Assembly: GCA_019459285.1 (NCBI GenBank)
Contig: JAIBEL010000045.1
Coordinates: forward strand, 26,149-58,148
Direction: 5' to 3'
Source: Rhizobium sp.
GTDB lineage: Bacteria > Pseudomonadota > Gammaproteobacteria > Burkholderiales > Thiobacillaceae
DNA length: 32,000 nucleotides
The position numbers were made by a program, and so were the translations under genes. The notes beneath the pieces were generated by a model that saw only the letters and a program-made list of their open reading frames with translations, was not told the DNA's origin and did no database searches. This document shows positions 8,466 through 26,707 of the stretch, in pieces. The first letter of the stretch is position 1, and every line of letters starts with the position of its first letter.

Positions 8466-11400
8466 ATGTCGAATGGGATGCGTTCGTGCGCTCAAGGCAT
8501 GCGTTGGGTTAGGTGTTTAATTAAGGATCGCACCTCACGAAATCTCGGCTTGCTGAAAAGGACATTAAAGCAAAGCCTGATCCACACATTCCTTACTACG
8601 ATTTTTTTCTGCCCTATTGTTCAAGCAGAATCGCTGGCGATCCACCCGATTATTGCAGCACCGACAGACAGTCCAGTTATCCCTGATCTGAATATTTACA
8701 ACGGCTGCTCGCTTATTCCCGTCGGTGGATATGGGGTTGATTTGTCCTCCGGCTTCTCTTACACCGTCGTAGAGCGCTGCGATGCGACGGCCAGTGCAAT
8801 TGGGCCGTTTCTTTCAAGCGGATGGCACGCAGAAAACAACTGCACCCCATTCAATTCTAGTTTCACTCCGTGCAATGGATACTGGCCTGTTTTATTGGAT
8901 AAAACACCGAAATGCCCTGCAGGCTATTCCATGGGTTCTGGAGTGTGCATTTCAAATGGGAATCCTGTTCCAGATAAAAATCTAGGTTCTGGACTTTGTA
9001 TAGGGAACCCCATCAATGCAGCCATGGGTGTGAAATATCAGAATGAGGTAGATGTCTATCCAATCTCATATGGAGGCTTGAGTTTTGAGCGAAGCTACAA
9101 CAACATTCAAAGTCAGTTCATTCCAATCAAATTGGAGAGTAACTATTGGCGTCACAATTATGATGGCCGTTTAATCATCAAAAATTGGCAAGGGACTACA
9201 GCAACCGTGGTTGCTGCCCGACCAAACGGAAAGAGTTTTTACTTCACGTTGGTGGGTGCTCTCTGGGCGGTAGATAGTGACATTCCCGATCATTTAACCG
9301 AACTCAAAGACACCAACAACGTCCGCACTGGCTGGCGCTACACTATCGCTGCTGACGACTCCGTCGAGACCTACGATGTTACCGGCAAGCTGCTTACCAT
9401 TGCCGAACGTTCCGGTCACACCCAAACCCTCACCTACGGGCGGCACCATCACCTACGGCTACGACGCCCAGAACAATCTCATCTCCGTCCAATACCCCGA
9501 CGGCAAGACCAAGACCTACCTCTACGAGAACCCCATCTTCCCCCATGCCCTGACCGGCATCGTTGACGAGAACGGCGACCGCTACGCCATCTACCGTTAC
9601 GACAGCCAGGGTCGTGCCGATGACGAAGACCACGGCGGCTCCGTCGATCATTACAATCTGGCCTACACTACCGACGCCTCAGGCACCCCGGTCAGCACCA
9701 CCGTCACCGACCCCCTCAGCACCCAGCGCACCTATAACTTCCAGACCATCCTCGGCGTCGTCAAGAGCACCGGCGTCTCCCAGCCCGGCGGCTCCGGTTG
9801 CAGCGCTTCGTCGTCCGCCATCACCTACGACCCCAACGGCAACGTCGCCAGCCGCGCCGACTTTAACGGTCATAAGACCTGCTACGCGTATGATCTGGCT
9901 CGCAACCTCGAAACCGCCCGCGTCGAAGGCCTGGCCTCCAGTGCGAGTTGCCCGAGCGATCCTGCCACCTACACCCCGGCTGCCAACACTGCCGAGCGCA
10001 AGATCCTCACCCAGTGGGATACCCGCTTCCGCCTGCCGACCAAAGTCACCGAAGCCGGCCGCGAGACCACCACCGTCTACGACAGCCACGGCAACGTCAC
10101 CAGCCTCAGCATCAAGGACACAGCCAGCGGCCAGACCCGCACCTGGACCACCAGCTACACCTACCACGCCAGCGTCCCCGGCGTCCTCGTCCAGACAGTC
10201 GAAGACGGCCCCCGCACCGACGTGGCGGATATCACCACCACCGACTACTACGCCCCCGACGAGAACTGCGTCGGCGACCCCTTGGGCTGCCGTGGCCAGG
10301 TCAAGCAGATCACCAACGCCCTCGGCCACATCACCACTTATAACGAATACGACGCCAACGGCCGCGTCCTCCGGACCACCGACCCCAACGGCCTCGTCAC
10401 CACCTTCGGCTACAGCCCGCGCGGCTGGCTCACCAGCCGCAGCGTCGGCAGCGAGACCACGTCGTTTGACTACGACGGCGTCGGTCAGCTCACCAAATTC
10501 ACCCGGCCCGACGGCAGCTATGTCAGCTTCGAATACGACCCCGCCCATCGACTCACCGCGATCGTCCAGCAGGACGGCGGTCGCCTCACCTACACCCTGG
10601 ATGCCATGGGCAACCGCATCCAGGAGGAGATCACAGGTCTGGGTGGCCACTACATCCAACGCCACACATTCGATGCCTTGGGCCGGCTATGGAAGGACAT
10701 CGGCGTTTACAACGACACCATTACCTACAGCTACGATGCCAAAGGCAACCTTACCGGTGTCGACGGCGCCCGTACCGACGTTGCCGACGTCACCAGCCAC
10801 AGCTACGACGCCCTCGACCGCCTCACCCAGACCCTCAACGCCGACGGCGGCATCGAGCAAATCAAGCCCAACGCCCTCGACCAAGTCACCCAGGTCGTCG
10901 ACCCCGCCAACCAAGCCACCACCCAAACGGTCGATGCCTTCGGCGAGGTCACCCGGACCGTCAGTGCCGACACCGGCACCACCACGCGTACCTACGACGA
11001 AGCCGGCAACCTCAAGACCGAGACCGACGCCCGCAATGTCACTGTCAGCTACACCTACGATGCACTGAACCGGCTTACCCAGAAGCAAAGCAACCAGAGC
11101 GGCAGTCCTGTCTACCAGTATTTCTACGACGACTGCGGCGCCGGCTACCTGTGCTGGACCTGGCGTAACAGCACACTCAACAACTACTTCAACTACGACG
11201 CGATGGGACGACTGAGCTACCGGCTGGATTTCGGCGGCGTCGGGGCATATTCCGACTACGCCTACCACCCCGGCGGCCAGCTTGCCACGCTGACCTATCC
11301 CACCGGCCGCAGCGTCACCTACAGCTACGATGCCCAGGGCCGTATCAGCCAGGTGGCCACCCAGCCTGCAAGCGGCAGCCCTGTTACCGTGCTGGCCCGC

Positions 11401-12744
11401 AATATCACCTACTACCCCTACGGCCCCATCAGGAGCTTCACCTACGGCAACAACCAATATTTCCAGCTAGGGCTCAACCTGGCCTACCGCATCGACTCCT
11501 TGGGCGATGGCCCCGTCTTCAACGGCCACGACTGGAACCCCGACGGTACGCTGAGCCGTTTGGGCACACGCCGAGGTACCCAGACCTTCAGCATTCCCTA
11601 CACCTACGACGCCACCGGCCGCCTCGTCTCCGCCCTCGATAGCGGTGTCGGCGGCTACGGCAGCCTCACCTGGGTCTACGACAAGAACGGCAACCGCCAG
11701 AGCGAAACCCGCAACGCTGGCACCATGCCCTACGCCTACAGCCCGCCCAACTGGCTCTACCAGAAAGGCGGCGAGACCCGGCCACGCACCGCCAACGGCA
11801 ACACCCTGAGCACGAGCACGGCCACCTTTACTTACGACGGCTACAACCGCCTCGCCACCAGCCAGACTGCAAGCGAGACCACCACCTACAGCTACAACGC
11901 CTTCGGCGAGCGGATGAAGAAGATCAACCAGAATGGTCTGTCCACCGTCTTCCACTACGGCCCCGACGGCGAACTGCTGTGGGAGAAGGATCAGGCCGGC
12001 AACAGCAAGGTCTACGTTTGGCTCTATGGACGGCCCTTGGCCCGGATCGACAACGACGCGCAGATTGTCTACTACCACGTCGATCGACTGGGTACGCCGC
12101 AGGCGATGACGGACGCAACCGGAACCGTCGTGTGGAAGGCTTACTACGATCCTTTCGGCAGTGCGACCCTAAGAGTCAACACGATCGAGAACAACCTCAG
12201 GCTGCCCGGCCAGTACTACGACCGCGAGACAGGGCTGCATTACAACTACTTCAGGGATTACGATCCGACGACGGGACGGTATGTTGAGGCGGATCCGATT
12301 GGGTTGGCCGGGGGGACAAACCTCTATGCGTATGTTGGTGGCAATCCTATAAACGCCACCGACCCACGGGGATTGGTCAAACTTTATGGAAGTTGGTGCG
12401 GTCCCGATTGGACTGGTGGGTTTTCGAAACAATATGACCAACTAGATGATATCGAGCGGTCGATAATGCTTCCGCCTGTTGACGATCTTGATCGGTGCTG
12501 CCAAGTTCATGACATTACATACGCATCGTGTCGTAAACAATTTCCTTGTGACCCAGAGGCAAGAAAACAGTGTTTCAAGAATGCGGATAGATCGTTAAAC
12601 AGTTGTTCGACGAATTCGCATGGTGATGCGTCCAGCCAGATATTGCTCTTTGGAAATGCCAAGAAACGTATTGCCGACTACATGAAAGAGTCCGACCCAG
12701 GCCCTGGTTCTAATGCCTCTAATTGTTCCTGTTCAACGAAATAA
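8466..12744 (+). pseudogene. rhs: Rhs/YD-repeat polymorphic toxin, reading frame broken at about 9440 (fragments 8466-9566 and 9376-12744)
   Basis: ATG at 8466 follows GGGGAGGG. There is an N-terminal hydrophobic signal-like segment. GNPINAAMGVKYQNEVD marks the start of the Rhs region, followed by dozens of YD repeats. The C-terminal Rhs core ends with YDPTTGRYVEADPIGL...NPINATDPRGL. The frame switches (+1) between ...GHTQTLTY and GGTITYGYDAQNN. Confidence 0.85.
12376..12741 (+). other. Rhs C-terminal toxin domain, phospholipase A2-like
   Basis: This domain begins immediately after DPRGL. YGSWCGPDWTGG (12385-12420) resembles the W-C-G-x-G calcium loop of secreted PLA2. DRCCQVHDITY (12496-12522 covers CCQVHDITY) matches the CCxxHDxxY catalytic motif of secreted PLA2 (compare bee-venom group III). 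Composition is AT-rich relative to the Rhs core. Confidence 0.55.
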
Positions 12745-12759
12745 AAGTGAACAAATAAG

Positions 12760-13098
12760 ATGAGACTCTCGCGAAAAATTGGATTGGCACTAGCCGGAAT
12801 TCATCTTGCAGTGTTTGTTGTGTTCTTGATCTACCTACAGTCATCTACGAATGGGCAGGTACGCTTGCTTTGGACTCTCTGGTTACCTATTGACTTTCCA
12901 ATCTCCTATGCCGTGATATTTGGCTTGGAGAGAATCCCCGATACAGTACCTGTTGGTGCATTCTTGCGCACATACCTTCCTCATGTTGTTCATGGGATAT
13001 GTGGAACTCTGTGGTGGTTTTATCTGCCAAGCCTAGTTGCCATGTTTTTCTCGTGGCTCGGGAAAAGGGCTCGTCCCACGACACCCGATAGTCGTTAG
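12760..13098 (+). CDS. Small polytopic membrane protein, candidate cognate immunity protein (RhsI)
   Basis: 112-aa ORF starting 15 nt after the rhs stop, with the same AT-rich composition as the toxin tip. Three or four hydrophobic helices are visible. The immunity role is inferred from position only. Confidence 0.5.
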   Translation: MRLSRKIGLALAGIHLAVFVVFLIYLQSSTNGQVRLLWTLWLPIDFPISYAVIFGLERIPDTVPVGAFLRTYLPHVVHGICGTLWWFYLPSLVAMFFSWLGKRARPTTPDSR

Positions 13099-13127
13099 TC
13101 CGCACCCAATCTAACGAGCCAGGCTTA

Positions 13128-15145: not shown

Positions 15146-15165
15146 CCCAGAATAGTGGCGGAGGA
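15146..15165. repeat. Distal att repeat of the selC island (displaced copy of the tRNA-Sec 3' end)
   Basis: tggcggaggaagtgggagtc matches tggcggaaggaagtgggagtc at 26582-26602 with a single 1-nt indel. Confidence 0.8.
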
Positions 15166-15231
15166 AGTGGGAGTCACAAAATACCTTGAGAATGTCTTGT
15201 TTAAATGGGTGTATGAAATACGCCCTATACT

Positions 15232-15325: not shown

Positions 15326-15865
15326 CTATTGCGCAAGCGCTTCGACCAATTTGATGGCTATCCGCTGATGGTCCTCAGGCAACGCTCTGAACGCAGCAAG
15401 TAGTCTGACTTCAGCGGCTGAGCCGCATTGCTCACCTTGCACCATGCCAAATAGCTCCTTGGCATCAAAACCCAAAGCCTCGCCTAACCTTATCAGATGA
15501 TTTCCTCGTGGGATTGCCCTTTTGCCATTCTCCCAGGTGGCGACAGCAGTTTGCGAAACACCGACAAAGATAGCGAGTTGTTCCTGAGTAAGGCCACGGC
15601 GGAGCCTGAGCGTCTTGATCCGCTCAGGGAAGGTCATGCCATCGAATACTTCGATTCCGTCCAGGTACCCAGATGGCATGCCATATTCCCGTTCGATCCG
15701 ACGGGCTGCATGTGAGCCAAATACTTCCTTGCCGAGCAGAAGTTGCCCGAGATAGCCCTTCTCTTTTCGTGGCATCGGCTTGCCATCAAACCATTCCTTG
15801 AGCTTCGACTGCCTAACAGTCATGAGCGCCCTGTCAGGATGATCTTCGATATTTTTGTTGTTCAT
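15326..15865 (-). CDS. XRE-family helix-turn-helix transcriptional regulator (two HTH-like halves)
   Basis: 179-aa ORF. The canonical HTH_3 segment is LRLRRGLTQEQLAIFVGVSQTAVATWENGKR. The N-terminal half (GYLGQLLLGKEVFGSHAARRIEREYGMPSGYLD) resembles a second, degenerate phage-repressor HTH. Confidence 0.8.
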   Translation of the reverse strand: MNNKNIEDHPDRALMTVRQSKLKEWFDGKPMPRKEKGYLGQLLLGKEVFGSHAARRIEREYGMPSGYLDGIEVFDGMTFPERIKTLRLRRGLTQEQLAIFVGVSQTAVATWENGKRAIPRGNHLIRLGEALGFDAKELFGMVQGEQCGSAAEVRLLAAFRALPEDHQRIAIKLVEALAQ

Positions 15866-16163: not shown

Positions 16164-16670
16164 ATGTGGAAGTCAGACTTTACCCGAGCACGACTGCTCC
16201 TTGGCATCCTGCTGGCATCGATCAGCATGGCTGCGACAGCGGGAACCCTAGTCGGGAGCGTGATTGGCGTCACAGATGGCGACACCTTGACTCTCCTGGT
16301 TGATCGTCAGGCTTACAAGGTACGGATTGCCGGGATCGACGCCCCTGAGAAACGACAAGCCTGGGGTGAGAAGTCGAAAACCAACCTGAGCAGGCTGGCT
16401 TTCAATCAGGAGGCGGTCGCAGAATGTCCGAAGGTTGACCGTTGGGGGCGGCAGATATGCAAGGTCTCAGTAAATGCTGTTGATATTGGCCTGGAACAAA
16501 TTAAGGATGGCATGGCTTGGTGGTACAGGAAGTACGCCAAAGAGCAATCCTCGGATGACCAATCAGCCTATGAAAACATGGAATTGATGGCAAAGCTTAG
16601 AAGGCTTGGGCTATGGAGTGACACAAACCCCATACCACCTTGGTATTTCAGATCGGAATCAACCCGATAA
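16164..16670 (+). CDS. Exported thermonuclease (staphylococcal nuclease, SNase-like)
   Basis: The signal peptide is MWKSDFTRARLLLGILLASISMAATA. The SNase motifs are VTDGDTLTLL...VRIAGIDAPEK...DRWGRQIC...GLEQIKDGMAWWYRKY. Confidence 0.8.
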   Translation: MWKSDFTRARLLLGILLASISMAATAGTLVGSVIGVTDGDTLTLLVDRQAYKVRIAGIDAPEKRQAWGEKSKTNLSRLAFNQEAVAECPKVDRWGRQICKVSVNAVDIGLEQIKDGMAWWYRKYAKEQSSDDQSAYENMELMAKLRRLGLWSDTNPIPPWYFRSESTR

Positions 16671-18427: not shown

Positions 18428-18775
18428 TCAAAACTCGCACATTTCGATGCATTCGGAATCCGGCTCCGCACTTGCCTTCGGCGGGTCATACGGTTCAGCC
18501 ACCAGCACGCCGGGATAGCGTTCCAGTACTTCGCCCCTTGATGCATCGGGATGGAAATAAACGATCAGGTGTTCGGTTTCGGAGAAGGCGAGCCACCAGC
18601 ACCACGAAGCCGCATCATTTTCGGTTTTCGCTTCCGTGGGGTTTGCTACTGCTACTGTTGCTATTCTTGCTACTGTTGCCGCCCCCTCATTGGGTTGAGT
18701 AGCAGGAATAGCAGGAATAGCAGTAGCAGCCTTCCGGGTTTCACGTTTTTGGATCAGCGCCGATAACAGGCTCAC
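18428..18775 (-). CDS. Hypothetical protein with an Ala/Thr/Ile-rich low-complexity N-terminal half
   Basis: The GTG start overlaps the primase stop (GTGA). It contains in-frame 9- and 18-nt DNA repeats (18645-18730). Confidence 0.55.
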   Translation of the reverse strand: MSLLSALIQKRETRKAATAIPAIPATQPNEGAATVARIATVAVANPTEAKTENDAASWCWWLAFSETEHLIVYFHPDASRGEVLERYPGVLVAEPYDPPKASAEPDSECIEMCEF

Positions 18776-21318
18776 GGTGCCACCCCCACTAACGCCGGAT
18801 TGAGTTGGATGGTCAGCCGCTTTCCTTCCTTCAGCAGCCGCAGCCGTTCAAGCTCGGCAAGCTCGCGGATCGCCGCATCAAGTCGCGCCCCGTCCCGCAA
18901 TGGCCCATGCTGGCGGACGTGATTCTTGCTAATGGAATGCCTCTGCTCTCGCTGCCCGTAATCGACCAGCCAGGTATCCAGACGCGCCGCGTCTGCCAGT
19001 TCCGCAGGTAGGGCAAGCTCGCCAAAGAATCGCCGTGATTCGTTCAGGTGCCATGCTGCAATCCGGCTTGCCGACTCGAAGCATTCCAGCCCGACAGCGC
19101 CGCCCATTCCCTGCTCGAATATCTGGAACAGCGCCGCCAGCCGTGCCGCGTTGTCGGCGGACTTGCTCGCCACGTCTCGCACGTCGTAAAGCTCGCCACC
19201 GCTGGCTAGTTCGCTCTCGATTGCATCGTGGAAGGCTACCCATGCCGCCTTTGCTTCAGGTGCCAGCATCATCAATGCGGGGGATAGCGCCCCATCCTCA
19301 TCAATCGGAACGGGGTTCGCCAGGATCGCCGCAATGCGTTTATGGAATGTGGCCAGGTGCGGCCAGTTCTCCGGGGCTTCGGTGAAGGGTCGAAAGCCTT
19401 GCGTCGATTCAGGCCACGCCACCAGAAACCGGGCTAGGAATCCAGTTCCACGCGCCAGCCCGCCGGATTTGTCGAAGAAACTCCGCAGGGTCATTTCCTG
19501 AATCTGCAAAGCCACGGTCAGCCGCGCCCCTTTGACGGTGAAGGATTCCGAAGTCCGCCGCCCGACTGAATGCGAACCGCCATCCCATAGCACGTTCAAC
19601 AGCCCAAGATTTCGCATCACTGAATCGCCGCTCATGCCGTGCGCCCCGAAAACAATCCCGGCCTCGGCAGAAACCACGCCCGCCGACGGCCAATGCTTCG
19701 CCAACCCCCAAGCCAGGTTTTCCGGGGTTTCGTCGCCAAGCAACAGCCTCGGCACTCTCGGCGCTTCCGGCTTGTCGCGTTGAAGGTCGGCAAGATCGGC
19801 CCGCAGGTTTTCGGTTGATTTTCCTAATTTGGCCGCGCCCTTGATCGCCGACAGAATCCCGTCGCGTTCGGCTTCCCATGCGGCAATCGCGGCCCGATAT
19901 TCCTTGATCGCCGGTTTCATCGCCTCGGCTTGCTCTTCCTGATACTGGCGGATTGCCGACGTAAAGAATCCGTCGCAGGTTGATTTGCGTTCGCCACTGT
20001 CGGCGATGGTCAGCAGGAATAATCCGACTGGACCTTGCAGCCGTTCCGCCCGCTTCGCGTCGATATGCGCTTGCGTTGCCAGTGAAAGCGCGGCCAGTGC
20101 CGACGATGCCACCATCGGCAACGGCGCTTTGACGAAACCCGCCACCTCTTCCACCGCCGCCCGGATGGTTTTGGGTAGGGCGTCGATTGGGTAAGGCTCT
20201 GGTGCCGCCTTCGCGGTCAACGGTTGCGGCTCCGGCCAAACTTGCCCCGCCAGGATTGGCACTGTTGCGTTTTCTTGTACTAGTTGATGCGATGTCCCAT
20301 CCGGCTCGCTTGCGTTCGCTATGGCGCGTTTTACGGCGTCCGCGCCGAGTAGCGCCGCCATGTCGTTGAAGTCCGTCGCTCTGTCCGGTCGGTCGGTACC
20401 GAAGTCTGGAATTGCCAGCTTGCCGCCGACTGATTGCGCTGCCTCGACTGCATGGGGATCAGGTGCGCCTGTCGCCTTCACCAGATCGGCCAGAATCACC
20501 AGCGCCGCCGACGGGTAGCGTTCGCGCATCGCCTTCGCCACCGCCGACAGGTTGCCCGCCGACAGCGCCGCGATTGCTAGGTGTCCGCTGGCTTCCTTCG
20601 CCGTTAGCATGGTCGCCACCCCTTCGCCGATTAGCAGGGTCAGGCCGTCGCCTTCGGTTAGCTGTTGCGCTGCCCAATATCCGCCAGCCTTCGCGCCGCC
20701 ATAGACGGCGGATTTGCGTCCCGCTTCATCGATCAGTTCCAGCGTTGAAAGCCCGTCACCGACTTTGACGGGTGCCACCAGCAAGCGCCCGGCCAGGGAT
20801 TCGCCGCTCGACTTCGGCGCATAGCCCAGGATCGCAACCGCCGCGCCCGCGTCAATCTCGCGCAGGGTTGCTACCGGCGAAACCTGTTTGCGGACAAGGT
20901 AGGGATGATCGGGCTTCGCTTCGGTCGCCGCCTTCCAAACTGCCGCCGATTTCTTCGCGGCTTCGGCACGTTCCAGCGCAGTCCGGGCCTCTTCGCGCGC
21001 GTGCGCGTATTGCTCAATTCGCTTACGCTCCGCAATCTCTTCGGGTGTCGGCTTCTGGTGCGTTCCATCATCGCGCCAGCCGTTCGCCTTGGCCTCATGG
21101 AACAGCGTTCCCGCCGTCACCTTGCCATTGATGCGGATACTCTTCCACACGTCCCGCGCATCTTTGGCGTTGAAGGTGTCGGCTTGCTGGCTCCAACCTT
21201 CCCACAGGTCAAAGCCCGCGTCCCCGACTTCGGACTTGATCGCCATGCCCATCTTCACCCAGGTACCGCGGTCACTGGCAGGGATGAATTGCAGCGCTTC
21301 CCGGATGCGGGCGCTCAT
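18772..21318 (-). CDS. Island replication protein: PriCT-like N-terminus, Toprim domain and DUF3987 (YfjI-like) C-terminal domain
   Basis: ATG at 21318 follows GGGAGG; the upstream 13 codons in the ORF track are not needed. IPASDRGTWVKMGMAIKSE..FDLWEGWS fits PriCT-2. LLIGEGVATMLT fits the Toprim glutamate motif. The large C-terminal domain resembles CP4-57 YfjI. Confidence 0.8.
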   Translation of the reverse strand: MSARIREALQFIPASDRGTWVKMGMAIKSEVGDAGFDLWEGWSQQADTFNAKDARDVWKSIRINGKVTAGTLFHEAKANGWRDDGTHQKPTPEEIAERKRIEQYAHAREEARTALERAEAAKKSAAVWKAATEAKPDHPYLVRKQVSPVATLREIDAGAAVAILGYAPKSSGESLAGRLLVAPVKVGDGLSTLELIDEAGRKSAVYGGAKAGGYWAAQQLTEGDGLTLLIGEGVATMLTAKEASGHLAIAALSAGNLSAVAKAMRERYPSAALVILADLVKATGAPDPHAVEAAQSVGGKLAIPDFGTDRPDRATDFNDMAALLGADAVKRAIANASEPDGTSHQLVQENATVPILAGQVWPEPQPLTAKAAPEPYPIDALPKTIRAAVEEVAGFVKAPLPMVASSALAALSLATQAHIDAKRAERLQGPVGLFLLTIADSGERKSTCDGFFTSAIRQYQEEQAEAMKPAIKEYRAAIAAWEAERDGILSAIKGAAKLGKSTENLRADLADLQRDKPEAPRVPRLLLGDETPENLAWGLAKHWPSAGVVSAEAGIVFGAHGMSGDSVMRNLGLLNVLWDGGSHSVGRRTSESFTVKGARLTVALQIQEMTLRSFFDKSGGLARGTGFLARFLVAWPESTQGFRPFTEAPENWPHLATFHKRIAAILANPVPIDEDGALSPALMMLAPEAKAAWVAFHDAIESELASGGELYDVRDVASKSADNAARLAALFQIFEQGMGGAVGLECFESASRIAAWHLNESRRFFGELALPAELADAARLDTWLVDYGQREQRHSISKNHVRQHGPLRDGARLDAAIRELAELERLRLLKEGKRLTIQLNPALVGVAP

Positions 21319-21557
21319 ACCAGCCTCCCAAACCGCAGCAAGGCCAAAGCGATGCACGCCCCGGCCTCTTTCCAGAAATTCCCACTGGCCGCATGAAGCT
21401 GGCGGGACTCTTCAAACTCATAGCCCATTAACCAAATGCGCCGCTTGATCGCTGACAGCATGGAAATCAGGTGCGCCGGTGCGGTAATATCTTGCTTGTG
21501 TGTAGTTTCTTGGGTCGCCTGGTGCCAGCCAGCGCGGCCCGTTGTTTTTGTGGTCAT
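21315..21557 (-). CDS. Hypothetical protein (80 aa), translationally coupled to the primase gene
   Basis: Its stop overlaps the primase start (ATGA). It starts 10 nt after the alpA stop. Confidence 0.5.
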   Translation of the reverse strand: MTTKTTGRAGWHQATQETTHKQDITAPAHLISMLSAIKRRIWLMGYEFEESRQLHAASGNFWKEAGACIALALLRFGRLV

Positions 21558-21567
21558 GTCGCGCCCC

Positions 21568-21783
21568 TTATTTCAAAGACTCGACCAGGGCACGGATAGA
21601 TTCAACAGGCCACGCCGTCACACGCGGCCCAAGTTTTACCGGCTTGGGGAAGCGCCCGGATTTGACGCCGCCCCACCAGCAGGATTTTTTGACAGGGATG
21701 ATTGGGGGGATCGGCGGTTCCGCTTTTGGGTCGCCGATAATTTGCGGCAGACGAAGGAAGCCGGTTTCGGGAAGTTTGTTCAT
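21568..21783 (-). CDS. alpA: AlpA-family phage regulatory protein / excisionase-like HTH
   Basis: 71 aa. FLRLPQII....PIPPIIPVKKSCWWGGVKSGRFPKPVKLGPRVTAW..ESI fits the AlpA/Phage_AlpA signature. Confidence 0.85.
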   Translation of the reverse strand: MNKLPETGFLRLPQIIGDPKAEPPIPPIIPVKKSCWWGGVKSGRFPKPVKLGPRVTAWPVESIRALVESLK

Positions 21784-21869: not shown

Positions 21870-22784
21870 TCAGCCGAATTTGGATGAATTATTTCCTTGG
21901 GTTAATAAGGCTTTCGCCAAGGCTTGACTATGTTCTTGCCGCGAGCCTTTTAGTTGTTCGGTGATCGTTCTATTTGAATATGGGCACCCCACCATCCCCG
22001 CTAACGACATCACGATTTCGGGAGAGACTTCGCCGAAATGGCGTCGTAGCGCCTTAGCAAGAAGTCCGATGTAGACTCGATAGCGGCGATTCTTGCCGCC
22101 GGGTTCTGCGCGATCGTTTACCTGAACATCGAGTTGATCGGATAGTTCGGTAAGCAGGGCATGCAGCCGGGATTGCTTCCCATAATCGCGCAACTTGACT
22201 CCACCCTTGTCGAAAGCATCCAGCACTTCCCATATGTGCCCTTGGGCCTTGACTACGTCCTTCTTGTTCGGCGTGGGCCAGTCGAAGGCCTTGCCGTCGG
22301 TCAAAAGAAAAATACAGGCGTTCGAAGCAACTGCTTCAAGGAATCGGAATTCAGCATAGGCATGTGCGTATAGAGCGCTATCCTTAGCGGTGGCTCTCTT
22401 TTGTTCGAAAACAGCCTTGGCCTTTTTGAAGTTGGCATCCGCGCTCAGCCATTTGAAAAGCATGTTCGATTTGATCGCCTGCCAATGCTCGGCGACACGT
22501 CCCGCTTGTTTAACTCGTTCGCCCTCATAGTCAATGAACTGCGGCTCAAATCTGAGCGGCCCACCTTCTAGAAGCCCGCCCCCTGCTTGTTGCATAGGTG
22601 GGTTGAAATTTGGGTGTAGTGGGTGGGAACTATGCCCCAATAGATTGCCCATTAGGCCCATATCGGGGTTTTCCTCGGACACCGGATAAAAGACTTTGTC
22701 CAAAGTCATGTCCGACACTAGAGCGATAAACTGGGTGAAATCTTGTATGGGTAAATCACCCCATTTATTCGTTTTCGTCGCCAT
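21870..22784 (-). CDS. Hypothetical protein (304 aa), island cargo gene E
   Basis: Clean ORF with ATG at 22784. No motif recognised. GC content is visibly lower than the backbone. Confidence 0.6.
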   Translation of the reverse strand: MATKTNKWGDLPIQDFTQFIALVSDMTLDKVFYPVSEENPDMGLMGNLLGHSSHPLHPNFNPPMQQAGGGLLEGGPLRFEPQFIDYEGERVKQAGRVAEHWQAIKSNMLFKWLSADANFKKAKAVFEQKRATAKDSALYAHAYAEFRFLEAVASNACIFLLTDGKAFDWPTPNKKDVVKAQGHIWEVLDAFDKGGVKLRDYGKQSRLHALLTELSDQLDVQVNDRAEPGGKNRRYRVYIGLLAKALRRHFGEVSPEIVMSLAGMVGCPYSNRTITEQLKGSRQEHSQALAKALLTQGNNSSKFG

Positions 22785-22881
22785 TGCCGCGCCCTTTCGC
22801 GCCGCCCTTGATTGGGTGCCACGCCAGCCGGGTAAGGGTGTCCCGGTTTTCGCCCCGTCGGGCTAGGCGTGGCGTAACTGT

Positions 22882-23880
22882 TTACGCGGTCTGCGCTGGT
22901 CGGAATGGAACTACGTTTCCGCCGTAGGAGGATCTAGCCGCGAGCAGTTCGTCCGCGATGCAAGCCGGGGTGTGCTTTTCTTTGAGCGCAATATCTTCCA
23001 CGATGGCACCGGCCTTGATCAGTCCGATGATTTGATCAACCAAGCGCTCTATCTTGTGCGTCGTGGCGTCGTTGTACCGCCATCCGCCGCTCTCGCCATC
23101 GAATAGTTTGGCTTCCAGCATGCCGAAACAAAGATCGGCTGTAGTAGTGGCCGACTCACGGAATGCCGTGGATGACTTGTACCAGGAGGCCACTAGTTTT
23201 TTTGCGGCCTCAATTTCCTTACGTTCCTGGTTGGTGCGGCACAGTGGTGCCGGCCGTGGCAAAGACATCATCCGGTTTTCCCACTCTCTTTCGGCACGAG
23301 AATGCTCATCACAGCGGCGCTGCTCCTCTTCATCCGATACCCGAACACATACTTCGTACAGCGCCTTTGATTTTCTGGAAACTCTTATTGTTCCTGGTTC
23401 TCGATACTCGCGATGGTTAGCGGTTGGTGCTCCCTTAGGTAACGAGCCATCCGGCAATATCGTAACGGTCACCTTGCGCATCCCCGGCTGGCCTGGTAAT
23501 TGGTTGCGTCGCACAAGTCCGGCAGAACTAAGTGATTCAGCGGAGCCAGTAAAGATGTCACCCCATGGGGTTTCACGCTTGCTGACTCCAGGAGCAAAAT
23601 CAGTAACAGGCCCGTACTCAGGGCAATCGCGCCCCGGGAATGAAATACTCGCACTGAAGATTCCCTCTCCCTTGTAGCTAGAGTCCTCTACCTTTGTGAT
23701 GAAGCCGCGCGGGTCTGTAACTCGAAGGCTGCGCTTCGGCCCGTCTGGCTCGCCAGGAAACGCCATTCCGGCAGCGATTCCGATACTCTGTAACTGCTCC
23801 TTCGTGCCATAGATGAGGTCACCCCATGGGCGCTGATCGTATTCAAGCACGCTGGGTGGTTTAAGATTCGTTACAGTCAT
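22882..23880 (-). CDS. Hypothetical protein (332 aa) with a duplicated N-terminal PWGD module, island cargo gene D
   Basis: ATG at 23880 follows AGGAGATTGCAC. The internal repeat is PWGDLIYGTKEQLQSIG...PGEP versus PWGDIFTGSAESLSSAG...PGQP. A charged coiled-coil-like middle is followed by a helical C-terminal domain. Confidence 0.6.
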   Translation of the reverse strand: MTVTNLKPPSVLEYDQRPWGDLIYGTKEQLQSIGIAAGMAFPGEPDGPKRSLRVTDPRGFITKVEDSSYKGEGIFSASISFPGRDCPEYGPVTDFAPGVSKRETPWGDIFTGSAESLSSAGLVRRNQLPGQPGMRKVTVTILPDGSLPKGAPTANHREYREPGTIRVSRKSKALYEVCVRVSDEEEQRRCDEHSRAEREWENRMMSLPRPAPLCRTNQERKEIEAAKKLVASWYKSSTAFRESATTTADLCFGMLEAKLFDGESGGWRYNDATTHKIERLVDQIIGLIKAGAIVEDIALKEKHTPACIADELLAARSSYGGNVVPFRPAQTA

Positions 23881-23897
23881 GGTGCAATCTCCTTTCG

Positions 23898-24365
23898 CTA
23901 ATATGTTGCATCGTTCGCCGCTTCCACATCCAGCCGCCTTGCCGACCATGCCCTAATCTTGATCAAAGCGTCAGCCCACTCCTGGGGCGTCAGCACTCGC
24001 CAAGACCTTTCCGGGCTAGGCCACATCCTACGGACTCTGAACTGCCGAATATCCCGCCATCGAGCGTCAGCCGGATTCGCATCGTTGGTCAGCGCATACA
24101 GCAGGCAGTAACAAGGCACGCCAGCACGCTTGGCCAGTCTCTTCGTCACAGTAGCCGACTTGTACCCCTGCCCCACGTCCAACGCAGTTTCGATGAGTGC
24201 CAATGGCTCTTTACTGCCGTTGTCGTACTCAACATACAGCGCCGCATCCAGATCAATCATGGCGAGCAACTGAGCTCGATCGATACCAATGAAACGGCGG
24301 GTAGACATCCGCCTATGCCAAGCTGAATAAGCGCGATCCCGAGTGCCGTAGGTTTCTTCTTGCAT
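23898..24365 (-). CDS. Hypothetical protein (about 155 aa), island cargo gene C
   Basis: The ORF is open to 24461. The start was chosen at ATG 24365 (GGGGAA upstream), with an alternative at 24386. The strand pattern AMIDLD...LALIETA...K is weakly reminiscent of a restriction-endonuclease-like fold. No confident call. Confidence 0.5.
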   Translation of the reverse strand: MQEETYGTRDRAYSAWHRRMSTRRFIGIDRAQLLAMIDLDAALYVEYDNGSKEPLALIETALDVGQGYKSATVTKRLAKRAGVPCYCLLYALTNDANPADARWRDIRQFRVRRMWPSPERSWRVLTPQEWADALIKIRAWSARRLDVEAANDATY

Positions 24366-24412
24366 GATTTTCCCCAGCCGCCCCATTTGCCTGTCAGGCG
24401 GGGCGGGATCGT

Positions 24413-24694
24413 TCAAATGTGCAGAGCTAGTTCGTTGCACTCTTTGGCCAGCATCGAGCACGCCCAGAGATAGTTCCCTTTGATTTCGTCAGACCAGTTA
24501 TCAAAAGACTCGAAACCATCACCGGTTGTTGTCACCAACATAGCGTACAACTGCGAAAGCCTGGTGCTCAATTGAGTTTTGATGTCAACGGGCGTTGCAT
24601 CAGGATGAAGCTGATAGAGCGGGGTCGAAATCGAAAACGCGAAATCGATTGTGCGATCGCTGGGTTGGGTTTGCGTAGAATTGCTGCCAGCCAT
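24413..24694 (-). CDS. Hypothetical small protein (93 aa), possibly DUF3077-like, island cargo gene B
   Basis: ATG at 24694 follows AGGAG. The protein begins MAGSNST. The DUF3077 resemblance is from memory of the family pattern and is low-confidence. Confidence 0.5.
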   Translation of the reverse strand: MAGSNSTQTQPSDRTIDFAFSISTPLYQLHPDATPVDIKTQLSTRLSQLYAMLVTTTGDGFESFDNWSDEIKGNYLWACSMLAKECNELALHI

Positions 24695-24722
24695 GATGTG
24701 ACTCCTGTTCACGTTGTGGTCA

Positions 24723-24756
24723 GGGCCGGTCAGGTGCTGTAACACCCCACTGGCCC
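24723..24756 (-). promoter_or_regulatory. Leader hairpin 2 (13-position stem with 2 mismatches and 1 G-U wobble) between cargo genes A and B
   Basis: The minus strand reads GGCCAGTGGGGTG-ttacag-CACCTGACCGGCC, flanked by CAGGCAAAGCG on the 5' side and CTGACCACAA on the 3' side. Confidence 0.4.
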
Positions 24757-24785
24757 GCTTTGCCTGTTGCTAAGGTATCGCTTCA

Positions 24786-25106
24786 TCAATCATGCGATTC
24801 GTCATTTCTGGCACGCGTAGCAATAACATCTGTCAGCAAATTCGCCACCCCCAGAGCGAACAGCGGATCACGATACCCAGCCCCAACGGCGTCAACGATG
24901 CAGGAATGGTGTTTATGCATCCCGCCGTACACGAGTCCGATGAGTTCGCCTTTTCGCGCCTCGTACAACAGGTACTCGAGTGCATCTATCGTGTCTTGGC
25001 AAATGTAATTTTTAACCAATTTCAGGCTATGAACGTTAGTCCGTTCTATTGGCGCGTTTCTAATCCGGCGTTTAACGCCCACAGTGCTACTCTTGATTCC
25101 AGCCAT
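24786..25106 (-). CDS. Hypothetical small protein (106 aa), island cargo gene A
   Basis: ATG at 25106 follows AGGAGATTGCAT. The protein begins MAGIKSS. No motif recognised. Confidence 0.5.
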   Translation of the reverse strand: MAGIKSSTVGVKRRIRNAPIERTNVHSLKLVKNYICQDTIDALEYLLYEARKGELIGLVYGGMHKHHSCIVDAVGAGYRDPLFALGVANLLTDVIATRARNDESHD

Positions 25107-25141
25107 GATGCAATCTCCTAGACGGGTTGCTTTGTGGTTAG

Positions 25142-25172
25142 GTAGCCGGGGATGTTGACGCATCCCGGCTAC
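25142..25172 (-). promoter_or_regulatory. Leader hairpin 1 (11-bp stem with 1 bulge) between int and cargo gene A
   Basis: The minus strand reads GTAGCCGGGAT-gcgtcaac-ATCCCCGGCTAC, flanked by CAGGCAAAAGCG on the 5' side and CTAACCACAA on the 3' side. There is no U-tract on the transcribed strand. Confidence 0.4.
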
Positions 25173-25190
25173 CGCTTTTGCCTGAGACCG

Positions 25191-26417
25191 TCAGGCGGCG
25201 GTTTTCCCGTGCAGCGGTATTACTTCTGCCCCGGCCTGCAGCCCATCCAGATAGTCCGCCCATGCCTGCATCATCTTCCTGCGCTCAGCCAGATACTCTG
25301 AACGATGGTAAGCAGCCCGCACCTTGTTCCGCTCAGCGTGGGCAAGCTGACGCTCGATGACATCCGGCTTGAAGCCCATTTCGTTCAATGCGGTGCTGGC
25401 CACCGCCCGGAATCCATGCCCGGTCATCCGTGAGTGATAGCCCATGCGGTACAGCGCAAAAAGTGCCGTGTTCTTGCTCATGGGCCTGGATGGATTACGC
25501 CCGGGGAATACAAAGCGGTAGCCGCCATTGATTTCCTTCAACTGGCGCAGAACATCAACCGCCTGCTGTGAAAGGGGGACGAAGTGCGCTTCTTTCATCT
25601 TCATGCGCTCAGCAGGAATCCGCCATTCGGCGCGGTCTAGGTCAAACTCCCCCCATTCGGCTTCCCGCAGTTCTCCGGTTCGGACAAAGGTGAAAGCCAG
25701 CAGCTTGAGCGCCAGCTTGGTTTGCAGGTCCCCCCCACCTTCGCTGTCATAGGCCTCGATCTTCCGCAGTAGATCGGGAAGCTCATTGATAGTCACCGCC
25801 GCTCGGTGTTCTACCTTGGCCTTGGCCCTCAGCGCTCCGCGCAGGTCGGCCGCAGGATTGCTCTTGCAGCGTGCGGTGGCGATGGCGTAGCGGAATACCT
25901 GCCCGCAAGCGCGATACACCTTTCTGGCTGTTTCGTCGGCTCCCTTTTTCTCGACCTTCCGCAGCGCTGCCAGCAGTTCGGCTGCGTCCACCTCGACAAC
26001 TGGCCGTGCTCCCAATTCGGGGAATATGTAGATTTCGAGTCGCTTGAGGGTGTCGGCGTAATGCCGGGGCGTCCATTTGTGGCGGATGTTCTCCAGCCAT
26101 TCCCGTGCAACCGCTTCGAAGGAGTTCTCGGCGCTTAGCTTCTTCTGGCGCTCCTGCGCCTTGCGATGCTCGCTGGGGTCGATCCCATCTGCAAGCAGTT
26201 TCCGGGCTTCATCGCGCCGTTCCCGGGCATCCTTCAGGCCGACATCAGGATAGACGCCGAGGGACAGGAGCTTTTCCTTACCCCCGAATCGGTACTTGAG
26301 TCGCCACCACTTACCCCCGGCAGGGGTCACCAGCAGGAACAGGCCTTTTTCATCGGCCATCTTGCGTGGCTTGTCGGTGGGCTTGGCACTTCGGATAGCT
26401 GAGTCGGTCAGGGCCAT
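25191..26417 (-). CDS. int: Tyrosine recombinase / integrase, P4-type (DUF4102 N-terminal arm-binding domain plus phage integrase catalytic domain)
   Basis: The start was chosen at MALTDSAIRSAKP (26417), the canonical N-terminus of this family. GKWWRLKYRFGGKEKLLSLGVYP fits DUF4102. The C-terminal HGFRAVAST...LAH......AYHRSEY carries the catalytic H-R-H-Y residues. Confidence 0.9.
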   Translation of the reverse strand: MALTDSAIRSAKPTDKPRKMADEKGLFLLVTPAGGKWWRLKYRFGGKEKLLSLGVYPDVGLKDARERRDEARKLLADGIDPSEHRKAQERQKKLSAENSFEAVAREWLENIRHKWTPRHYADTLKRLEIYIFPELGARPVVEVDAAELLAALRKVEKKGADETARKVYRACGQVFRYAIATARCKSNPAADLRGALRAKAKVEHRAAVTINELPDLLRKIEAYDSEGGGDLQTKLALKLLAFTFVRTGELREAEWGEFDLDRAEWRIPAERMKMKEAHFVPLSQQAVDVLRQLKEINGGYRFVFPGRNPSRPMSKNTALFALYRMGYHSRMTGHGFRAVASTALNEMGFKPDVIERQLAHAERNKVRAAYHRSEYLAERRKMMQAWADYLDGLQAGAEVIPLHGKTAA

Positions 26418-26419
26418 CT

Positions 26420-26478
26420 GGGGGTATCTCCAGGAGGGGTAACTCAAATTACCCCCAACGTTACCCCCACCTACCCCC
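26420..26478. promoter_or_regulatory. Cluster of five TACCCC(C) motif copies (two inverted, three direct), candidate arm-type sites in the int-proximal arm
   Basis: gggggta at 26420-26426 and ggggtaa at 26436-26442 are inverted. ttaccccc at 26449-26456, gttaccccc at 26460-26468 and ctaccccc at 26471-26478 are direct. Confidence 0.45.
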
Positions 26479-26581: not shown

Positions 26582-26677
26582 TGGCGGAAGGAAGTGGGAG
26601 TCGAACCCACCCGGGAGCGACTGACACCCCCAACCGAATTTGAAGTCCGGCCGCACCACCAGGCACGCTTCCCTTCC
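26582..26677 (-). tRNA. selC: tRNA-Sec (UCA anticodon)
   Basis: The reverse complement reads GGAAGGGAAGCGTGCCTGGTGGTGCGGCCGGACTTCAAATTCGGTTGGGGGTGTCAGTCGCTCCCGGGTGGGTTCGACTCCCACTTCCTTCCGCCA. It has an 8-bp acceptor stem, a 6-bp D stem, a CTTCAAA anticodon loop, a long variable arm, a GGTTCGACTCC T-arm and an encoded CCA. It parallels E. coli selC. Confidence 0.95.
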
Positions 26678-26707
26678 AATTGAAACCCGATTCTCCAGTC
26701 GATCGCT

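Follow-up and report, generated by a model that had tools for sequence, protein, structure and literature searches.

The genes carried between the integrase and alpA genes of an integrative island at selC, the tRNA-SeC gene, are a mosaic of separately exchangeable cargo and not one system. The island lies in a stretch of 32,000 nucleotides (the window; positions 26,149 to 58,148 of contig JAIBEL010000045.1) from a metagenome-assembled genome labelled Rhizobium sp., whose relatives are Thiobacillus-like Betaproteobacteria. Five open reading frames (ORFs), all on the minus strand, fill the interval between int (25191-26447) and alpA (21568-21783): A (24786-25106, 106 aa), B (24413-24694, 93 aa), C (23898-24365, 155 aa), D (22882-23880, 332 aa) and E (21870-22784, 304 aa). 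We favor, with a probability of about 0.6, an account that combines this slot structure with exchange of cargo at a conserved 5' leader, here called leader-1, and with C and D as the functional core of the cargo. The int-alpA RNA, the gene in the E position, alpA, orf80 and the DUF3987 primase constitute a conserved regulatory and replication core, and cargo (here A, B, C and D) accumulates between int and the int-alpA RNA. The first two cassettes, A and B, each begin with leader-1, and according to the favored account recombination between leader-1 copies would gain or lose cassettes.

The mosaic structure is apparent from a comparison of locus neighborhoods by tblastn and jackhmmer; clustering of ORFs was dropped because it was swamped by the shadow ORFs of GC-rich DNA. 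Sister islands share alpA (77-94% identity), orf80 and the primase (87-93%), their integrases are 29-47% identical, and their int-alpA content differs, which agrees with the original prediction that this interval is a variable slot. The loci L045/46, L047/48 and L049-51 carry E only, the last group with a Toprim + DUF927 replicase, and L052/53 and L054 carry D and a non-homologous protein of 275 or 355 aa. The nearest relative, L055, carries B (99% identical), C (95%), D (89%) and E (52%). B, C and D recur together solely in L055, which belongs to the same element lineage, and A is missing there. D occurs without C in three lineages (L002, L052 and L054), and C without D in about 24. Gene A, a cargo orphan, sits on a 417-bp indel (window 24767-25183, minus strand, against L055 744-757) whose flanks are identical in L055; the indel is bounded by a direct repeat, CAGGCAAA(A)GCGG, that belongs to leader-1 and recurs in its two neighboring copies. 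E is 52% identical in amino-acid sequence between the window (21870-22784) and L055 (2730-3647), and the genes flanking it are 89-99% identical. Synonymous divergence between the two islands is likewise uneven, at 0.05 for B, 0.48 for C and 0.67 for alpA. The low identity of E amid similar flanks and this uneven divergence are signs that alleles have been replaced through recombination.

The boundary of the slot is given by an RNA. The spacer between D and E holds a full-length match (22805-22873, minus strand; model positions 1-71 of 71) to the int-alpA RNA of Rfam (RF02996), which scores 78.8 bits against a cut-off of 35.8 and ends 20 nt before the E start codon. The motif was reportedly described by Weinberg et al. 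in 2017. In eight related loci, too, the int-alpA RNA is found immediately 5' of the last gene before alpA, be it E or a non-homologous protein of 207-355 aa, with a gap of roughly 10-20 nt in the window and in these loci, and all cargo is on the int side of the RNA in the nine loci where it was detected. Since the RNA adjoins the gene in the E position and all cargo lies on its integrase side, E groups with the int-alpA RNA and alpA and not with A to D. Rfam types RF02996 as an sRNA. Its location 5' of protein genes that vary suggests instead that it acts in cis as a leader or marks the boundary between modules. E itself is the usual gene just upstream of alpA and represents a rare family with divergent alleles, in which the C-terminal two-thirds is conserved and a stretch near residues 60-100 is hypervariable. 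An E profile found nothing meaningful among Protein Data Bank (PDB) sequences. The proteins that occupy the E position in L052 and L054, and E. coli YfjH, were considered as relatives of E and proved unrelated on comparison. E would be the island's own gene rather than cargo; its coupling to the int-alpA RNA and alpA speaks for this, and possibly for a role as a regulator or a helper sensor.

Leader-1 is an element of about 100 nt with three hairpins and without an Rfam family. It is present twice in the window, upstream of A (copy 1, 25103-25204, minus strand; 91.2 bits with our covariance model R1, RNAfold z = -3.97) and upstream of B (copy 2, 24691-24784, minus strand; 76.1 bits). The first hairpin, P1 (CCUGA..UCAGG), overlaps the int stop codon; the second, P2, has 13 bp of variable sequence and is followed by a box, CCUGACCACAAAG; the third, P3, has the Shine-Dalgarno (SD) sequence within its loop, and a CCA in it is paired to UGG within AUGG, which contains the start codon. 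Leader-1 supplies the SD sequence, the start codon and the first few codons of the cargo gene, and unrelated cargo proteins behind it share their N-termini (MAG/MAV..N.S/T). All nine copies that were folded have the three-hairpin architecture. In a MAFFT alignment, 12 of 25 pairs showed compensatory changes, a number equaled in 0 of 500 shuffles, and slid controls paired in 20-49%; in an 18-copy alignment, which was fitted to the covariance model, 16 of 25 pairs covary and 87% of the cells are paired as against 30-46% with the partner slid. The model recovers these 18 copies in 15 integrase-linked loci, seven of them from outside its training set (E 1.6e-14 to 1.6e-3). The 16 copies beyond the window are in L002, L003, L005, L007 (two), L008, L009, L011, L012, L014, L015, L016, L025, L052, L054 and L055. 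Leader-1 always lies 5' of the first cargo gene or genes, some of which encode large proteins without relation to A or B (for example D in L002, L052 and L054). The same model finds none in sister islands that lack cargo, in the viral loci with methylases or in CP4-57. The indel that carries A runs exactly from one leader-1 copy to the next, from which we infer that recombination between copies adds and removes cassettes.

Leader-1 copies also carry a candidate promoter element on the opposite strand. A -10-like box in antisense, TAnnnT, lies within codons 5-7 in 14 of the 18 copies (TACTCT at copy 1, in A, at about 25088-25093 on the plus strand, and TAGAAT at copy 2, in B), and its fixed position suggests a SymR-like cis-antisense RNA. 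At copy 1 the putative RNA would start near 25101 on the plus strand and begin AGCCAUGAU. The Rfam symR model (RF01809) matches antisense to the A leader with 44.5 bits (E 4e-7 over 651 nt), and the start of the model coincides with the predicted antisense transcription start. A relationship between leader-1 and symR is not established. An RNA of this kind would prevent translation of the cargo up to the activation of the island; we regard such silencing as plausible and put it forward tentatively. Parts of the leader can also be seen further inside the block. The start region of D (AGGAGATTGCACCATGACTGTAACGAATCTTAA, window 23879-23914, minus strand) retains the P3 half and an antisense TAAGAT box, and at this C-D junction the 3' end of C stands in the place of P1 and P2; the junction was not significant with the leader-1 covariance model (5 bits). 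Upstream of C there is a P1-like remnant only (CCTGACAGGCAAA). A scan of the A-E block for sigma-70 promoters returned no sites.

Within the cargo, C belongs to a large uncharacterised family of phages and mobile elements. We counted 563 homologues, the top 120 of which all have at least 64% identity, and the family forms 673 clusters at 50% identity. Residues W16, H17, R18, D38, D40, E59, D63 and K69 do not vary, so that the D...E...K pattern, noticed earlier as a possible sign of a restriction-endonuclease-like fold, is indeed present; the nuclease fold itself gained no support from structural matches. The AlphaFold model (predicted local distance difference test, pLDDT, 84) has the order helix, short strand, two strands, helix, two long strands, helix. 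This order, with D38/D40 and E59 on adjacent strands, resembles a restriction-endonuclease-like core in the predicted structure, and from it we infer that C may be a nuclease. The low-ranking Foldseek matches, none of them significant, include HincII, SwaI and a SPARDA assembly, and a search of BFVD gave a single match to an unnamed phage protein (E 1.9e-6). A C profile found nothing meaningful among PDB sequences, there was no match to C in plasmids, and Pfam, PHROGs and the PDB gave no similarity to known resolvases, exonucleases or single-strand annealing proteins (SSAPs).

The family ranges from prophages of Betaproteobacteria to SAR11 phages. C occurs in IMG/VR contigs and also right after unrelated tyrosine integrases, and 19 Pelagibacter podophages have distant homologues (27-33% identity) in their early regions, near an SSAP, a nuclease and a replication initiator. 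The phages include Lederberg and HTVC203P among the 19 (for example L056 5001-5372 and L057 4989-5369), and one of the pelagiphage homologues carries the annotation 'putative oxidoreductase'. The distant homologues, including the pelagiphage ones, had no match in PHROGs. In 11 mostly viral loci (L017, L023, L024, L027-L031 and L033-L035) C follows a ParB-HTH-N6/N4 DNA methylase of about 450 aa, with a gap of about 8-12 nt in 10 of the 11 and of about 500 nt in L035, and in one metagenomic protein (P0247, 357 aa) the C domain is fused to a methyltransferase-like domain with a DPPY motif. A 'putative methylase' annotated beside C in pelagiphages has no Pfam match and, on reading, no methylase motifs, and was for this reason dropped as independent support for a link between C and methylases.

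D, too, was described correctly by the original prediction insofar as it has a duplicated module and a long helix. Two tandem WGD modules (about residues 10-90 and 93-180) are followed by a long helix (183-206), a helical C-terminal domain and a conserved tail, and the AlphaFold model (pLDDT 87) has two tandem beta-rich modules, a long helix and a helical domain. We counted 248 homologues of D; there was no match in cultured phages or plasmids, and a D profile found nothing meaningful among PDB sequences. Relatives with a single module have the conserved C-terminal tail ..F[QR][RS]F[ML].., and D ends in GGNVVPFR, which hints that tails of this type may be docking peptides. D or a single-module D-like protein adjoins C in 8 of about 32 C lineages, in contexts that differ in integrase and in replication genes (of DnaB type) and in both gene orders. 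The association of C with a D-like protein is the sole one that recurs independently: the five-gene unit was found nowhere else, and the C/D pair was. In prophage-like elements of L003, L005 and L002, D and C come after HicAB or HigBA toxin-antitoxin pairs and precede DnaB-type replication genes and giant polyvalent proteins (LPD38, InPase); in L003 a 194-aa protein with a single WGD module lies between D and C.

Our best guess is that C and D form a nucleic-acid-targeting accessory pair. C would be a protein acting on nucleic acid through a restriction-endonuclease-like core, and D its partner, regulator or targeting subunit. The pair would serve in conflict between mobile elements or with phages; a nuclease-type role in such conflict is a guess, and somewhat unlikely. 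A bolder version would make leader-1 a portable silencing leader that combines a SymR-like antisense RNA with a recombination joint, an analogue of an integron without IntI or attC, and would make its commonest cargo, C and a WGD protein such as D, a new two-component, nuclease-type system against phages or rival mobile genetic elements; this whole combination we consider a long shot.

A number of results weigh against the account of silenced, leader-borne cargo with a C/D core. None of A to E matched a family among the system hidden Markov models of PADLOC-DB 2.0 at E ≤ 1, an empty result that had been expected. The motif of C reads E59-T-A61, so that alanine takes the place of the lysine of the canonical (D/E)xK, and the invariant K69 comes 10 residues on. 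Foldseek searches, made with the AlphaFold models of C and D, gave no significant match in the PDB for either (E ≥ 0.14 for C). The link between C and methylases comes down to a single fusion protein and 11 methylases of one close lineage, and because these methylases are close relatives their adjacency to C possibly reflects shared ancestry rather than functional coupling. The C/D pair is facultative, since D occurs without C in three lineages and C mostly without D. For the leader, the fitting of the 18-copy alignment to its own model has to be set against the covariation counted there; the symR match lies below the Rfam cut-off of 61 bits and was not recovered at other leader-1 copies in a larger search; and the leader-1 model finds the E. 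coli symE leader, in the right place and on the right strand, with an insignificant 11 bits (E 0.11).

The ORFs themselves are genuine genes. Their positions, sizes and shared direction are as first described, and their frames are intact, with SD sequences or leaders. NCBI annotation includes all five. Selection was estimated from the window and L055, which are 91-92% identical in nucleotide sequence. The ratio of non-synonymous to synonymous substitution rates (dN/dS) is 0.048 for C (40 synonymous and 8 non-synonymous changes) and 0.22 for D, with 0.057 for alpA and 0.14 for the primase as references; these values place C, D, alpA and the primase under purifying selection. B has 3 synonymous changes against 1 non-synonymous. 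C, D and E have many full-length homologues (12 in the case of E), and B, a small cargo protein, is 42% identical to the protein upstream of C in L018; a pattern scan of metagenomes found no match to B. These points leave it barely credible that some or all of the ORFs are spurious or decaying in a degenerate island, an idea that can draw on the orphan status of A and on a gap in one gene-call list. A forms a singleton cluster, present on 13 contigs, and had no homologue among metagenomes (pattern scans), cultured phages or plasmids, no sensitive search for remote homologues having been made. Because it is a singleton, its coding status rests on leader, SD sequence and ORF only. The Logan gene-call list for contig L001 omits C, which NCBI has as K0M39_09180; as C is the most conserved gene of the block, gaps in such tables do not count as evidence of absence. 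With regard to annotation, A to E had no match at E ≤ 1 beyond noise in Pfam, PHROGs, PADLOC or NCBIfam, in line with the earlier statement that no defence or enzyme signature is recognizable. This extends to B, which had been thought DUF3077-like and has no Pfam family at E ≤ 1 and no PF11275 match. An AGGAG-type ribosome-binding site, supposed for every gene, is present before A, B and D and not before C, which has GGGGA, or E, where the int-alpA RNA takes up the upstream region and accounts for the lack of a clear SD sequence.

The structure of the slot also bears on the proposal of the original prediction that A to E are one undescribed functional system, for defence, helper interference or toxin/antitoxin action. 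The genes are co-directional, tightly spaced and without known annotation, they lie in the type of slot where satellites hold defence genes (PMC9122126, PMC12595487), and B, C, D and E are kept together in L055. Yet L055, at its level of nucleotide identity, is the same element lineage and lacks A, its E is 52% identical between flanks of about 90%, E occurs alone and so does D, in most loci C is without the others, and the int-alpA RNA separates E from A to D. A to E are together nowhere else, and E is inherited independently; a single system is highly improbable. A different possibility is that C, alone or with D, does early housekeeping work for phages and integrative elements, acting in recombination, in the processing of replication intermediates or in anti-restriction, and is not a defence that benefits the host; the island would then carry it simply because an early-region module was exchanged. 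This would fit the early regions of lytic or temperate pelagiphages, in which C lies near an SSAP, a nuclease and a replication initiator; its place after the ParB-HTH-N6/N4 methylase in the 11 viral-type loci and, in prophage-like elements, between int and DnaB-type replication genes; and its dN/dS of 0.05, as expected of contact with a conserved substrate. Against it, the sister islands L045-L054 have the same replication core and lack C, which indicates that this type of island can do without it, and C is unlike the known resolvases, exonucleases and SSAPs. We therefore consider a housekeeping role unlikely, though it deserves to be kept in view.

The leader-1 cassettes could, alternatively, be type I toxin-antitoxin-like loci of the SymE/SymR kind, in which A and B would be small toxins that are silenced by antisense RNA and stabilize the island. 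The symR match antisense to the A leader, the antisense -10 box in most copies, the sequestration of SD and AUG by P3 and the small size (72-130 aa) of the proteins behind many leader-1 copies are all in keeping with this. However, the symR match is below its cut-off and that of leader-1 to the symE leader is not significant, A has no SymE_toxin or other Pfam match, and leader-1 also precedes large unrelated proteins, among them D in three loci. Cassettes of this kind thus seem improbable here, and the account of mosaic cassettes with C and D at their core remains the one we prefer.

The island spans about 11.4 kb, from the tRNA-SeC gene (26582-26678, minus strand; ARAGORN, and Rfam tRNA-Sec with 74.5 bits) to a degenerate copy of the tRNA 3' end. 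The target tRNA gene, beyond which lies selB, forms attL with its 3' end, and the attR-like repeat (GACTCCCACTTCCTCCGCCA, about 15155-15176, minus strand) marks the far end. The full tRNA 3' end was not found as a direct repeat with three or fewer mismatches; the copy, which has one indel, was recovered by a k-mer search. As had been noted earlier, the block has a lower GC content than the chromosome (0.54-0.56 for A to E against 0.65-0.70 in the flanks). The order of genes is int, A to E, alpA, orf80, a PriCT_2/Toprim_3/DUF3987 primase-helicase, two uncharacterised proteins of 115 and 220 aa, a nuclease resembling staphylococcal nuclease (SNase) and an XRE-type helix-turn-helix (HTH) protein. 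The integrase is a P4-type tyrosine integrase on the minus strand (Pfam Arm-DNA-bind_3, Phage_int_M and Phage_integrase). The AlpA-like regulator, also on the minus strand, scores 20.8 bits with Pfam Phage_AlpA against a cut-off of 21; the protein at the alpA position in L047 carries PF05930, yet tblastn did not match it. The primase-helicase (18772-21357, minus strand; DUF3987 E 1e-95, PriCT_2 E 2e-20) is preceded by orf80 (21315-21557). At the far end, the SNase homologue looks secreted (16164-16670, plus strand; Pfam SNase, E 5e-18). The XRE-type protein, whose gene has the reverse orientation (15326-15865, minus strand), may be the repressor of the island. Neither PHROGs nor Pfam recognized a psu, delta or sid gene for capsid size or transactivation in the 15 island proteins scanned, some small ORFs being left unscanned, and no packaging or capsid genes were recognized in the island. 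Elsewhere in the window, a second patch of low GC (0.48-0.57; about 8466-13100, plus strand) holds an ORF of 1122 aa with YD/RHS-like repeats and a distinct C-terminal end, followed by a small ORF resembling a membrane protein. Judged on translation alone, the two look like an Rhs toxin/immunity pair.

New anti-phage systems are known to come from the variable cargo that small int-alpA islands carry beside the integrase. The present analysis places the boundary of the slot, with cargo between int and the int-alpA RNA, and gives an Rfam 'sRNA' a new place, immediately 5' of a protein gene that varies. Leader-1 stands ahead of unrelated cargo in at least 15 elements and marks one observed cassette indel, and would thus provide a concrete mechanism for both the filling and the silencing of the slot. 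The C family and the D-like WGD-module proteins replace an ill-defined block of five genes as the target for further work. Three things look new: the leader-1 cassette, the placement of the int-alpA RNA as a 5' element before a gene that varies, and the protein families of C and of the D-like proteins.

Known systems resemble the island in part. An integron has IntI and attC cassettes, whereas the integrase here is of P4 type and the repeats are 5' leaders with an SD sequence and AUG (no attC model was run). Leader-1 shares with the SymE/SymR locus and with the counter-transcribed RNA (ctRNA) of R1162 (IncQ) a hairpin, a CUAA(C/U)CACAA box, an SD sequence and AUCAUG, and as in those systems an antisense RNA would begin a short way into the coding sequence and span SD and AUG. 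It scores below the cut-offs of both Rfam models (44.5 against 61 for symR, 23 against 55 for the R1162 ctRNA), a SymE-like protein is lacking (A and B have no Pfam or NCBIfam match), and leader-1 is reused before many unrelated genes. In E. coli K-12, CP4-57 has a P4-type integrase beside a tRNA-like gene, as here, and the order intA-yfjH-alpA-yfjI[DUF3987]-...-abpAB; it thus shares with the island a single gene of about 300 aa between int and alpA, a DUF3987 protein after alpA, and accessory or defence cargo. The yfjH gene, however, has the opposite orientation, YfjH shows no relationship to E (hhalign probability 0.2%), CP4-57 lacks the int-alpA RNA and leader-1, both of which the island has, and its defence cargo (abpAB) lies beyond the DUF3987 gene and not next to int.

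The closest parallels are with phage satellites. PICMI are small satellites with a core of int, alpA and a DUF3987/DUF5906 primase and with accessory genes of high turnover, for defence or without an assigned function (PMC10803314), and the island has this core set of int, alpA and DUF3987 primase. PICMI belong to Vibrionaceae, integrate at fis with Fis being mandatory, have iolg overlapping int and keep their hotspot between prim and fis (PMC10803314), whereas the island is at tRNA-SeC, downstream of selB, and differs in attachment site and host clade. Phage satellites in general are induced, packaged and transferred by a helper phage, and no helper is known for the island. The island has the integrase and the AlpA-like regulator by which P4-like satellites are recognized. 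Integrase-proximal cargo hotspots with defence systems are established in P4-like satellites and in tmRNA-linked int-alpA islands (PMC9122126, PMC12595487). The cargo here matches no catalogued defence system, and the exchange of cargo at a conserved structured leader, apparent here, is not described for them in the available text of these reports. In both cases it is the cargo on the integrase side that varies among otherwise similar elements (PMC9122126, PMC12595487), as it does in the island at selC.

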